From: Escherichia coli
GTDB taxonomy: Bacteria; Pseudomonadota; Gammaproteobacteria; Enterobacterales; Enterobacteriaceae
NCBI RefSeq assembly: GCF_003991155.1
Contig: NZ_CP031293.1
Direction: 5' to 3' (one strand)
DNA: 64,000 nucleotides
Shown here: positions 33,001 to 36,000 of the stretch, one piece after another
How the letters are laid out: each line of letters begins with the position of its first letter
Position numbering within the stretch: position 1 is the first letter of the stretch
Made by a program: the position numbers

Positions 33001-36000
33001 ACGATGGCGCTGAAAAAATATCGCCCACAGGCCGACGATACCCGGCTGCTCGCCGAGTTGTCAGCGATAGCCAGCACCCTGAAATCAGCGTCACTTTCCG
33101 ACATCGAGATGCGTGGTTTCACCTTTGATCAAAAACGCCAGACGCTCCACCTTCAGTTGCGGGCCGCGAACTTTGCCAGTTTCGACAAACTGCGTAGCGC
33201 ACTGGCGGCAGATTATGTTGTGCAACAGGACGCGTTACAGAAAGAGGGTGATGCGGTTTCCGGCGGCGTAACGTTGCGGAGGAAATAACATGTTACGCGA
33301 TAAATTTATTCACTATTTTCAGCAATGGCGTGAACGCCAGTTAAGCCGTGGCGAACACTGGCTGACACAACACCTGGCGGGGCGTTCTCCGCGTGAAAAG
33401 GGCATGTTACTGGCAGCGGTGGTGTTCCTGTTTAGCGTCGGATATTACGTCCTCATCTGGCAGCCGTTGAGCGAACGGATAGAACAACAGGAGACGATGT
33501 TGCAGCAGCTCGTGGCGATGAACGCGCGACTGAAGAGCACTGCGCCGGATATTGTTGCGGCGCGAAAATCCGGCACGACAACGCCAGCACAGGTATCGCG
33601 GGTCATCAGCGACAGCGCTTCCGCGCACTCGGTGGTCATCAAACGGATTGCCGAGCGTGGGGAGAATATTCAAGTCTGGATAGAACCTGTGGTGTTTAAT
33701 GACCTGCAGAACTGGTTAAAGGCACTGGATGAAAAATATGCGCTGCGGGTGATACAAATTGATGTCAGCGCAGGTGAGAAGCCTGGGATGGTGAATGTGC
33801 AGCGACTGGAATTTGGGCGGGGGTAGGTATTGCCATTTCCTTAACCCCACCTGATAACCCTTAGCCCAATGGTGAGTGCGGAACTGTCAAACCCGCTCAC
33901 CGGGCTGAGTTTCGATGTAGCAAGAATTATCTCCCTCCAGACCACCACGGAATATTCGGTAACACTGAAGGAACCTGTTTTTCACCATGTAGCCTTCGTT
34001 AATCGACACCTTTCTAAGACTGTAAAGATGCTTAAGTGTTTTGACACATTATGATTATTAATAGTTGTAATAAATCATTGAGTAACAATTGATAGGTCAA
34101 AACATATAGGATAATTCTTATGTGATCTGTATTTTGTGTAGCCTGGAAATTAGTAAAATTACTGGAGATAATCAGAAAGGGAATTTCAAATAAGCATAAT
34201 AATTTCCAGGGAAACTATTCGTCGATTTTAAGAAATGTCTGCTCAGGTATATCTACTGAGGGATAATGCTGGCTGTAACGCTGGTTAAAATAAATGCACA
34301 AAATAATCAAGGCGTATACTTTAATTGACGAAAATAATTACTCACGGAATTATTAATGGGACTTAAATAACACCGTTTAAATGTGATGTAAATCACAAAT
34401 GTGACTGTAAAGAGGGGGCTGTAGATATAAATAAGAAGTACATGAGTGAATTTTAAATAGGGAAATAGTTTCTCGGTGAACAATTTATTGGTAATCAATC
34501 GCGTGCGTTCTGGTTTGAAACAGATTGCAGGTATTGTTACGCATAAAATCCATAGGGGGTATTATAATCAAGTAGTTAACAGTAACAACAAAAATAATTT
34601 CCTGAGAAATTAACTCTACATTCTAAAACGGCCAGTTTTCTGAAGTTACCAGAAGACCGAATACGTTCATGCCTGAAGAATGGATTAGAAGAAACGAGAC
34701 GGAAATAGATCTATTTATCCCTGCGGAAATAATTTCTGCTGAAATTTTTTGCGGCTATTAAAAAGGTCAAACCGTCTGAGTAAATTTTATCCAGTTACAA
34801 ATAAGCATTACCTCCAGTGTATTGGTAGCTGTTAAGCCAAGGGCGGTAGCGTACCTGAAGAGATTAGGATCACATCATCAAATGGCAAGAAGTGGATTTG
34901 AAGTCCAGAAAGTCACCGTAGAGGCATTATTTCTACGAGAAATACGAACACGCTTTGGTAAGTTCCGTCTGGGATATTTGTGGGCGATTCTCGAACCCTC
35001 TGCGCATTTGCTGATACTGTTGGGTATTTTTGGTTACATTATGCACCGCACGATGCCAGACATCTCATTCCCGGTGTTTTTACTTAATGGCCTGATTCCC
35101 TTTTTTATCTTTAGCAGTATCAGCAATCGTTCTGTAGGTGCTATTGAAGCGAATCAGGGGCTGTTTAATTATCGACCAGTAAAACCCATCGATACGATCA
35201 TTGCGCGTGCATTGCTTGAGACACTGATTTACGTTGCTGTTTATATATTGCTTATGCTTATCGTCTGGATGGCAGGCGAATATTTCGAAATAACAAACTT
35301 TTTACAACTTGTGCTTACCTGGAGTTTGTTAATCATTCTTTCATGTGGCGTTGGCTTAATATTCATGGTCGTTGGTAAAACCTTCCCTGAAATGCAAAAG
35401 GTCCTGCCGATACTGCTTAAGCCGCTGTATTTCATCTCCTGCATCATGTTCCCTCTGCACTCAATTCCAAAGCAATACTGGTCGTATCTACTCTGGAACC
35501 CATTAGTGCATGTCGTGGAGTTAAGCCGCGAGGCAGTTATGCCTGGCTATATCAGCGAAGGTGTGAGTCTGAACTACCTGGCAATGTTCACTCTGGTCAC
35601 CCTGTTCATCGGTCTGGCGTTATACCGAACGCGTGAAGAGGCAATGCTGACATCATGATTAAGATTGAAAATTTGACGAAGTCATATCGCACGCCAACGG
35701 GTCGACACTATGTGTTTAAGGATTTAAATATTGAAATCCCTTCAGGAAAAAGTGTTGCCTTTATTGGTCGCAACGGAGCGGGTAAATCAACGTTACTGAG
35801 AATGATTGGTGGTATTGACCGCCCCGACAGTGGAAAGATCATCACCAATAAAACAATATCATGGCCAGTCGGCCTCGCCGGTGGATTTCAGGGAAGTTTA
35901 ACTGGACGCGAGAACGTAAAATTTGTTGCGCGGTTATACGCAAAGCAAGAAGAACTGAAAGAGAAAATTGAGTTTGTCGAAGAATTTGCCGAACTGGGCA

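Follow-up and report, generated by a model that had tools for sequence, protein, structure and literature searches.

The gspM-kpsM interval of an Escherichia coli group 2 capsule locus: a map of the probable region 3 promoter and its long, allele-variable leader

What occupies the kilobase of DNA that separates the last gene of the T2SS-beta operon from the first gene of the capsule exporter in Escherichia coli, and where does the capsule DNA begin? The question was examined in a window of 64,000 nt, which is the whole stretch analysed and the one to which all coordinates refer. The upstream gene, gspM (33290-33826 by ORF call, plus strand, TAG stop codon at 33824-33826), is the last of its operon, is named yghD in RefSeq relatives and scores 399.8 bits against the NCBIfam model NF007274, ‘GspM family T2SS protein YghD’ (cut-off 352). 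Downstream, kpsM (34882-35658, plus strand, ATG at 34882), whose best family is KpsM and whose counterparts at this position in related genomes are annotated in RefSeq as ABC transporter permease, forms with kpsT (35655-36323, plus strand) the region 3 ABC exporter (kpsMT, 34882-36323), and the region 2 genes come after it on the same strand. ORF calls and family matches confirm the end of gspM at 33826 and the start of kpsM at 34882, as placed by the first-pass annotation, and leave a non-coding gap of 1055 nt (33827-34881) between stop and start codons. We consider it very probable that this interval is the control region of region 3 of the E. coli group 2 capsule (kps) locus, made up of the promoter PR3 and a long 5′ untranslated leader. 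It is the region 3 promoter and leader that have already been well studied, and the observation is correct, ordinary and already known.

In every locus examined the interval adjoins kps genes. Of 5426 complete E. coli genomes, 1594-1699 contain it and 1594 carry at least 80% of it, and most sequenced kps strains match it at 95-99% identity. When alleles are compared, conservation peaks at 34102-34152 (0.96-0.97) and at 34827-34881 (0.98-0.99). The interval had been described as strongly AT-rich, which is true of the distal ~860 nt, from ~34021 onward (33.6% GC at 34021-34881 and 30.8% at 34060-34500, vs 53.1% in the backbone and 50.2% in the whole window), but not of the first 194 nt (33827-34020), whose GC content is 47.9%. 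The further proposal that it carries the region 3 promoter and 5′ UTR is sustained by two landmarks, namely the projection of the published start site and the presence of a JUMPstart/ops element.

For the K5/K1 cluster, PR3 and a 741-nt 5′ UTR have been described (Stevens 1997; Xue 2009; reviewed in PMC8960920), and the region 3 start site is placed 741 bp upstream of kpsM in that review. Projected through another allele, that of the kfiA-D-carrying K5 strain L008 (leader of 1057 nt), the start is predicted to fall here at 34143/34144, which would give kpsMT a 5′ untranslated leader of ~739 nt (34143-34881, plus strand). At -13 to -8 of the projected start stands the hexamer TATTTT (34130-34135, plus strand), which is invariant in 12 of 12 alleles, including that of a group 3 strain. 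It agrees with the consensus at only 4 of 6 positions, was missed by a simple promoter scan and has no -35-like hexamer at 17-nt spacing. The distance from TATTTT to the hexamer embedded in the CRP site described below is 257 nt, equal to that between the published knock-outs ‘-13G’ (P1) and ‘245G’ (P2) (PMC12360894), and this coincidence of spacing suggests that TATTTT is the published -10 element of P1, that is, of PR3. The two H-NS footprints whose coordinates are given in PMC8960920, citing Xue 2009, are predicted to lie at 34008-34122 (-135 to -21, via the same K5 allele; 26% GC) and at 34284-34362 (+141 to +219; 28% GC). Scans with the consensus motifs of Fur, FNR, SlyA and IHF and with the nucleation motif of H-NS returned weak matches only, to which no weight is given here.

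Within the leader lies a CRP site, TGTGATGTAAATCACA (TGTGA-TGTAAA-TCACA, 34382-34397), centred at -492.5 from the kpsM ATG, and this is the single perfect TGTGA-N6-TCACA of the 64-kb window, in which 0.07 would be expected. The kpsM CRP site of EAEC 042, also at -492.5 and reading TGTGATTTATATCACA on the other strand, is documented by ChIP-seq, bandshift and reporter work (PMC12360894). Among the alleles the half-sites are invariant and the spacer is variable. The -10 hexamer of a second promoter, P2, is embedded in this spacer and reads here TGTAAA (G at 34388), not TATAAA, so that P2 is predicted to be inactive in the present allele; the G haplotype is common to at least 381 genomes.

At the level of RNA, the predicted transcript opens with a stem-loop in the MFE fold of the leader (34144-34208, plus strand; stem 34144-34152/34200-34208), whose 9-bp stem is kept by RNAalifold in 10 alleles with one compensatory and two wobble changes, and which may protect the 5′ end. 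Four palindromes of the type AATTTC-N4-GAAATT are distributed along the leader, where dinucleotide shuffles give 0.2, the motif having been picked after seeing the data: copy 1, AATTTC-CAGG-GAAACT, at 34201-34216; copy 2, the degenerate AATTAC-TCAC-GGAATT, at 34336-34351; copy 3, AATTTC-CTGA-GAAATT, at 34596-34611, which heads a repeat unit of 116-135 nt; and copy 4, AATTTC-TGCT-GAAATT, at 34731-34746, which is followed by T6 and is terminator-like in the present allele only. A candidate intrinsic terminator at 34723-34755, flagged by a scan, was dropped, its T-run being interrupted in most alleles. The leader is furthermore a recombination mosaic, in which 34256-34591 represents a distinct haplotype. 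In 418 of 1551 genomes (the long form, 27% of leaders), an extra unit of 117 nt, a diverged tandem copy of the unit that follows, is inserted at a point that corresponds to 34591-34592 here, as located by alignment; the present allele lacks it. This duplication was not detected by Tandem Repeats Finder, and pairwise alignment with shuffles was required to reveal it (unit A vs unit B, alignment score z = 8.8). Near its end the leader carries a JUMPstart element (34815-34853, plus strand), which matches the Rfam family RF01707 over model positions 1-38 of 38 with 58.5 bits (gathering score 35; E = 2.8e-12). Its ops core, GGCGGTAGCGTA (34842-34853), has no second copy in the leader and ends 28 nt before the kpsM ATG, equal to the 28 bp published for the ops-to-kpsM distance (PMC8960920). 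A weak Shine-Dalgarno-like AGGA can be read at 34866-34869 (plus strand), 12 nt before the ATG.

By analogy, the roles given in the literature to the start site, H-NS, SlyA, CRP and RfaH would be expected to hold for the present allele. If they do, the sigma-70 promoter PR3 (P1), with TATTTT and without a -35 element, would start the transcript at ~34143/34144; H-NS would silence it at low temperature from the AT-rich flanks (~34008-34122 and 34284-34362), and SlyA/H-NS would remodel these flanks at 37°C. Binding of cAMP-CRP at 34382-34397, within the leader, would dampen expression; in other strains the same site also hides the weak second promoter P2. The ~739-nt leader would limit the transcription that reaches kpsM, JUMPstart/ops (34815-34853) would load RfaH onto RNA polymerase, and transcription would then proceed through kpsMT into the serotype-specific region 2.

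Could the interval nevertheless conceal an unannotated functional gene, either for a small protein or for an sRNA distinct from the kpsMT leader? It contains several ORFs of 20-63 aa, among them a minus-strand ORF of 63 aa (34307-34498) that is intact in seven of nine alleles, the leader fold is more stable than that of shuffles (z = -3.3), and the minus strand has a promoter-like 10/12 match at 34588-34561. However, no ORF of at least 20 aa is intact in all of the 9 other alleles compared, each one being disrupted in divergent alleles; 3-nt periodicity was not found in the substitutions among alleles; the four longest ORFs of the interval have no Pfam match; and no CDS is annotated under the interval match among the full-length RefSeq matches listed. 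The promoter-like matches number four, against a shuffle mean of 4.0, and an Rfam E-value scan of 33000-35500 yielded JUMPstart as the sole family. Translation of the alleles in all six frames, the periodicity of mismatches, the intactness of ORFs across alleles and Pfam lead us to reject a protein-coding gene, in agreement with the first-pass annotation, which had seen no credible ORF and had named a strongly conserved protein gene or sRNA as the finding that would speak against it; none was found, and a concealed gene appears very unlikely. Even less probable is that the interval forms the edge of an integrase-mobilised tRNA island, which would be expected to show an att-type repeat at the gspM end. 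In its favour, the kpsF side does carry a 3′ remnant of pheV (49941-50009), which comprises the pheV terminator spacer and the 3′ ~22 nt of pheV (the pheV′ direct repeat), is 95.8% identical to K-12 (L002:4638-4708) and escaped a gapless search with the pheV 3′ pattern because it carries 1-nt deletions. It is, however, the only pheV-like copy in the window, with none at the gspM end (33700-34100), and a BLAST comparison of the two junctions found no att-like repeat, nothing longer than 8 nt being common to both. Alignment with K-12, which the earlier reading had proposed, places the breakpoint at 33825/33826, homology being lost at 33825, within the stop codon of gspM, and regained on the far side at 49941. 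The interval is indeed the left edge of DNA missing from K-12-type chromosomes; relative to K-12 the extra DNA sets in at the stop codon of gspM and stands in place of 100 bp of the yghD-pheV spacer. This 100-bp spacer shares with 33701-50100 chance words only, of at most 11 nt (BLAST). Since the pheV′ repeat adjoins the K-12 pheV spacer without a break and is turned towards the island at 50010 onward, whose CbtA/CbeA genes lie just past the far junction, it marks the limit of that neighbouring pheV island, as its distal repeat, and does not bound the capsule locus. The latter is located between gspM and the old pheV spacer, outside the repeats of the island. The earlier remark that no tRNA-derived repeat is visible at the gspM end is borne out, and the contrast that it drew with the kpsF side stands as to the presence of the remnant there, with the refinement that this remnant belongs to the adjacent island. 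In the same neighbourhood, an ORF at 49611-49763 that looked by eye like a transposase remnant has no Pfam match.

A less easily dismissed alternative concerns the position of the boundary between backbone and capsule DNA. The proximal spacer (33827-34020), which K-12-type chromosomes lack, exists in two deeply diverged haplotypes, the alleles L004 and L012 being 56-58% identical to the present one in this segment vs 92-95% in gspM and 86-94% downstream. Just 3′ of gspM it holds a hairpin (33860-33909, plus strand; inner stem 33871-33878/33894-33901) with a fold of -42.2 kcal/mol (z = -2.9), whose inner 8-bp stem is retained throughout the alleles, the 56%-identical ones included, with one compensatory pair. 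The transcript of the gsp operon probably ends in this putative 3′-end hairpin. Its outer stem and U-tract are not conserved across alleles, the tail after it reads UUUCGAU here and otherwise in other alleles, and a terminator scan gave no call there; lacking a conserved U-tract, it is a candidate intrinsic terminator only. With their conserved hairpin and ordinary composition, the first 194 nt are in any case a module that evolves separately, and a second, internal boundary therefore lies at ~34020. It could be argued that this is the true backbone/capsule boundary, 33827-34020 being the native 3′ untranslated end of gsp, lost in K-12-type strains when the capsule locus was deleted or replaced. 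The backbone-like composition of the segment relative to the DNA beyond it, the hairpin with which it opens, a history of its own (56-58% identity between haplotypes vs 86-95% in both flanks) and its retention in group 3 capsule strains would all fit. Yet, in a spread sample of ~2,700 genomes of the K-12 type, homology stops at the stop codon of gspM or within a few bases of it (query 521-538) and is followed by an unrelated spacer of 148 bp with its own hairpin; the segment is seen only with kps DNA (gspM together with the first 274 nt is covered to at least 80% in 1536 genomes, and the leader to the same extent in 1594); and polarity cannot be set without an outgroup. We hold this account to be possible but doubtful.

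Among the virulence factors of extra-intestinal E. coli the group 2 capsule is a major one, and the interval is the point at which temperature, nutrient (CRP) and RfaH control converge. This established picture is left unchanged; what is gained is a base-accurate map of the published elements on the present allele and the exact junctions with K-12 (33825/33826 and 49941). In the accessible literature on group 2 capsules (Stevens 1997 and Xue 2009 through reviews), no description was found of the mosaic leader, the missing 117-nt unit, the TGTAAA hexamer or the four palindromes. Natural variants, such as the G allele of the P2 -10 and the short and long leaders, are candidates for effects on the level of capsule. 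It is a speculative and, in our estimate, rather improbable idea that the leader is an allele-specific tuning device for capsule expression, with the palindromes as regulator sites or attenuating RNA hairpins. Were it true, the A/G change in P2, the presence of one or two 117-nt units and the mosaic haplotypes could set a lineage-specific level of capsule or its sensitivity to catabolites, and the conserved AATTTC-N4-GAAATT palindromes that head the units would be sites for a regulator new to kps, or attenuating hairpins.

Among the closest known systems is PR3 of the K5/K1 clusters, with which the present locus shares the position relative to kpsM, a predicted -10 element without -35, AT-rich flanks at the projected H-NS footprints and an ops element at 28 nt. 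The present allele differs from the K1/K5-type in 34256-34591, which is only 92% identical, and in the P2 -10, altered with respect to the alleles studied; its leader is the short one-unit form (1055 nt), as is that of a K5 ST131 allele. With EAEC 042, where P1, P2 and repression by CRP have been described (PMC12360894), it has in common the half-sites TGTGA/TCACA at the same position and the 257 nt from P1 to the CRP hexamer that correspond to the published mutations (-13 and +245), whereas the spacer is TATAAA there and TGTAAA here, with G at position 2 of the P2 -10. The JUMPstart/ops elements of the rfb, rfa, hly, tra and cps operons (RF01707) are matched here at full length; in other operons the element is close to the promoter, whereas here it ends a leader of ~700 nt. 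In a scan of a genome collection, 49 species representatives of Enterobacteriaceae carry its 30-nt core unchanged; tried as a marker of kps, this core proved not to be specific, most of the 49 matches being other polysaccharide operons, and useful information came only from E. whittamii, whose locus is cut at 34594, and from three species of Pantoea. The kpsMT loci of Pantoea (L034, L057 and L058) have a homologous JUMPstart and kpsM/kpsT, with 72-74% DNA identity from 34807 on. Their leaders, of ~500 nt, are likewise non-coding and AT-rich (28-37% GC within a region of 55-60% GC), although they cannot be aligned to that of E. coli, are without AATTTC-N4-GAAATT palindromes and have another upstream neighbour. 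Shared JUMPstart and kpsM combined with an unrelated AT-rich leader indicate that the architecture is conserved beyond Escherichia.

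The leader occupies 1055 nt (33827-34881) between gspM/yghD, at 33290-33826 (NCBIfam NF007274, 399.8 bits, over its cut-off), and kpsM, which has its ATG at 34882 and KpsM as its best family and is followed by kpsT. ORFs and family matches thus confirm the gene limits, 33826 and 34882, of the first-pass annotation. In RefSeq relatives the same two genes are annotated with nothing in between. Of 5426 complete E. coli genomes, 1699 have the interval (1594 of them with coverage of at least 80%), and no annotated feature lies under it among the full-length matches listed. Its description as strongly AT-rich is valid from about 34021 onward (33.6% GC over 34021-34881 and 30.8% over 34060-34500, with 53.1% in the backbone to the left) but not for the first ~194 nt past gspM (33827-34020, 47.9%). 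The most AT-rich stretch of the window is found elsewhere, at 40358-40838 (21% GC over 400 nt), separating kpsS from the last gene of region 2 at the meeting point of the two convergent capsule transcription units. The interval contains 14 ORFs of 20-63 aa, none of which is intact across all nine aligned non-identical alleles, since the divergent ones disrupt every one; substitutions in it show no 3-nt periodicity and Pfam gives no hit to the four longest ORFs. A protein-coding gene is rejected on these grounds. With permissive filters, the sole Rfam match in the interval is JUMPstart (RF01707, 34815-34853, 58.5 bits vs a gathering score of 35), and the claim that no credible ORF is present holds.

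The best-supported reading of the interval, very probably the correct one, is the textbook control of region 3 by a promoter, a long leader, a CRP brake and ops/JUMPstart. A sigma-70 promoter at ~34130-34143, silenced by H-NS and activated by SlyA/H-NS, would produce a leader of ~739 nt attenuating expression and bearing the CRP brake, and ops/JUMPstart would load RfaH so that transcription reads on through kpsMT and into region 2. In group 2 capsule loci, the region 3 promoter PR3 (P1) starts 741 bp upstream of kpsM and has a -10 but no -35, ops is found 28 bp before kpsM, H-NS footprints cover -135 to -21 and +141 to +219 relative to the start, and the long UTR tunes the amount of transcription arriving at kpsM (PMC8960920). 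These coordinates were carried onto the window via a K5 allele (L008, strain 2017_APHA), which has kfiA-D and a 1057-nt leader. The start projects to 34143, and the upstream and downstream footprints to 34008-34122 (26% GC) and 34284-34362 (28% GC), respectively. Directly upstream of 34143, TATTTT (34130-34135) lies within the block GATCTGTATTTTGTGT, which is identical in 12 of 12 alleles, a group 3 strain included, and where conservation in the promoter-proximal half peaks (0.96-0.97). Exactly 28 nt separate the last base of the ops 12-mer, 34853, from the kpsM ATG. Judged by these positions, the assignment of the region 3 promoter and 5' UTR to this interval appears sound. The predicted transcript opens with a stem-loop (34144-34152 paired with 34200-34208), the stem of which persists across 10 alleles and shows a single compensatory change; this structure plausibly stabilises the 5' end. 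In a group 3 capsule locus (L003, NZ_OZ547090.1, isolate AHB2, 5001-5706), PR3 and the leader are kept to window-equivalent 34255 and fused to 34786-35074 (JUMPstart and a kpsM 5' pseudogene) ahead of the group 3 cluster, with deletion of most of the leader, CRP site included.

The CRP site, TGTGA-N6-TCACA at 34382-34397, is the sole perfect match in the 64-kb window (0.07 expected), and is centred 492.5 nt upstream of the kpsM ATG. In EAEC 042, a 2025 study identified by ChIP-seq and bandshift the CRP target 'kpsM, -492.5, TGTGATTTATATCACA', at which CRP moderates the upstream promoter P1 and shuts off a weak P2 that has the CRP-site spacer (TATAAA) as its -10; knock-out mutations of P1 (-13) and P2 (+245) are 257 nt apart (PMC12360894). 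TGTGATTTATATCACA is the reverse complement of the CRP-site sequence in most alleles compared. The same 257 nt separate TATTTT (34130) from the CRP-spacer hexamer (34387) in the window, which lends independent support to TATTTT as the putative P1 -10. Unlike 042, the window has TGTAAA as CRP spacer, and P2 is predicted to be inactive in this allele because the change affects position 2, the most critical base of the sigma-70 -10 hexamer. The TGTAAA haplotype is common to at least 381 genomes; other alleles have TATGAA, TGAATA or TCTTAA, and the half-sites never vary.

A separate haplotype segment, 34256-34591, carries the CRP-site G at 34388; the segment is only 92% identical to alleles that match 99.5% on both flanks, and on this comparison the leader is a recombination mosaic. 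An additional 117 nt is present at 34591/34592 in 418 of 1551 genomes and represents a tandem duplicate, now diverged, of the unit that comes next (z = 8.8). The window has the short form, and since all divergent alleles are long, the short form probably arose by deletion between the 21-nt unit heads. These heads are palindromes, AATTTC-N4-GAAATT, a motif chosen post hoc, with four copies in the leader against 0.2 expected; their arms are conserved and their spacers variable among alleles. Neither the PR1 side of the locus (48835-49940) nor the Pantoea leaders contain the motif. Insertions are also found in and near the leader: in L013 (NZ_CM192162.1, strain CMZE120, ~2862-4819) ISEcp1 lies after window-equivalent ~34687, with PR3 and the CRP site on one side of it and JUMPstart and kpsM on the other, and in L004 (NZ_CP196120.1, strain B19695, 1-1867) the T2SS-beta operon has ISEcp1-blaCTX-M-15 immediately before a gspL with a frameshift, ~2 kb from the capsule leader.

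The comparison with K-12 proposed in the first-pass annotation shows the backbone ending inside the gspM stop codon: the MG1655 alignment stops at 33825, its second base (TAG in the window vs TAA in K-12), and picks up again at 49941, and across a spread sample of ~2,700 K-12-type genomes the match breaks off at the same point or a few bases away. Composition and haplotype structure suggest instead a boundary at ~34020, as 33827-34020 exists in two deep haplotypes 56-58% identical, with 92-95% in gspM and 86-94% in the remaining leader. A hairpin at 33860-33909 is retained in all haplotypes, its inner 8-bp stem invariant or wobble-preserved with one compensatory pair; as no conserved U-tract follows, it is a candidate 3'-end hairpin for the gsp transcript and not an established terminator. 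In a divergent lineage (L005, NZ_CP139794.1, strain Nord8, 3438-4016), the first 12 nt of the post-gspM spacer are gone and the yghD annotation extends 42 nt further, into the spacer (579 nt in all). A further 8 kb, 24324-32323, from gspD into the 5' part of gspL, is missing from MG1655, whose homology passes directly from 24323 to 32324; this is the T2SS-beta deletion known for K-12.

The K-12 yghD-pheV spacer measures 148 bp, and in the window its first 100 bp are missing, replaced by 16.1 kb (33826-49940). At 49941-50009 follow the K-12 pheV terminator spacer and the final ~22 nt of the pheV gene (95.8% identity, with 1-nt deletions), and past 50010 island genes such as CbtA/CbeA; this pheV' repeat thus marks where the neighbouring pheV island ends distally and leaves the capsule locus outside that island. 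ARAGORN finds no tRNA genes in the window, and no repeat longer than 8 nt is common to both junctions. The absence of a tRNA-derived repeat at the gspM end is thus borne out, and of the contrast drawn with the kpsF side the pheV remnant stands, although it delimits the neighbouring island and not kps. The pheV-integrated island fills 50010-64000, with a CbtA toxin/CbeA antitoxin pair (51483-52312, minus strand, Pfam 206 and 176 bits) just inside it, right of pheV'.

Overall, the finding of the first-pass annotation is real and its interpretation correct; the element is already characterised, and the allele-level variants are modest additions. The 30-nt JUMPstart core is identical in 49 species representatives, mostly in other polysaccharide operons. 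Enterobacterial-identical copies on short contigs of Arthrobacter (L020, L039, L047, L051), Bacillus (L050) and Firmicutes MAGs (L025, L030, L040), two of them exactly 6928 bp, are most likely assembly contamination. In three Pantoea species, JUMPstart-kpsM-kpsT is homologous, with identity from 34807 on, whereas the leader upstream of JUMPstart (~500 nt, non-coding, 28-37% GC) is unrelated in sequence to that of the window; a long AT-rich leader before JUMPstart thus seems to belong to the architecture of these kpsMT loci beyond Escherichia as well.
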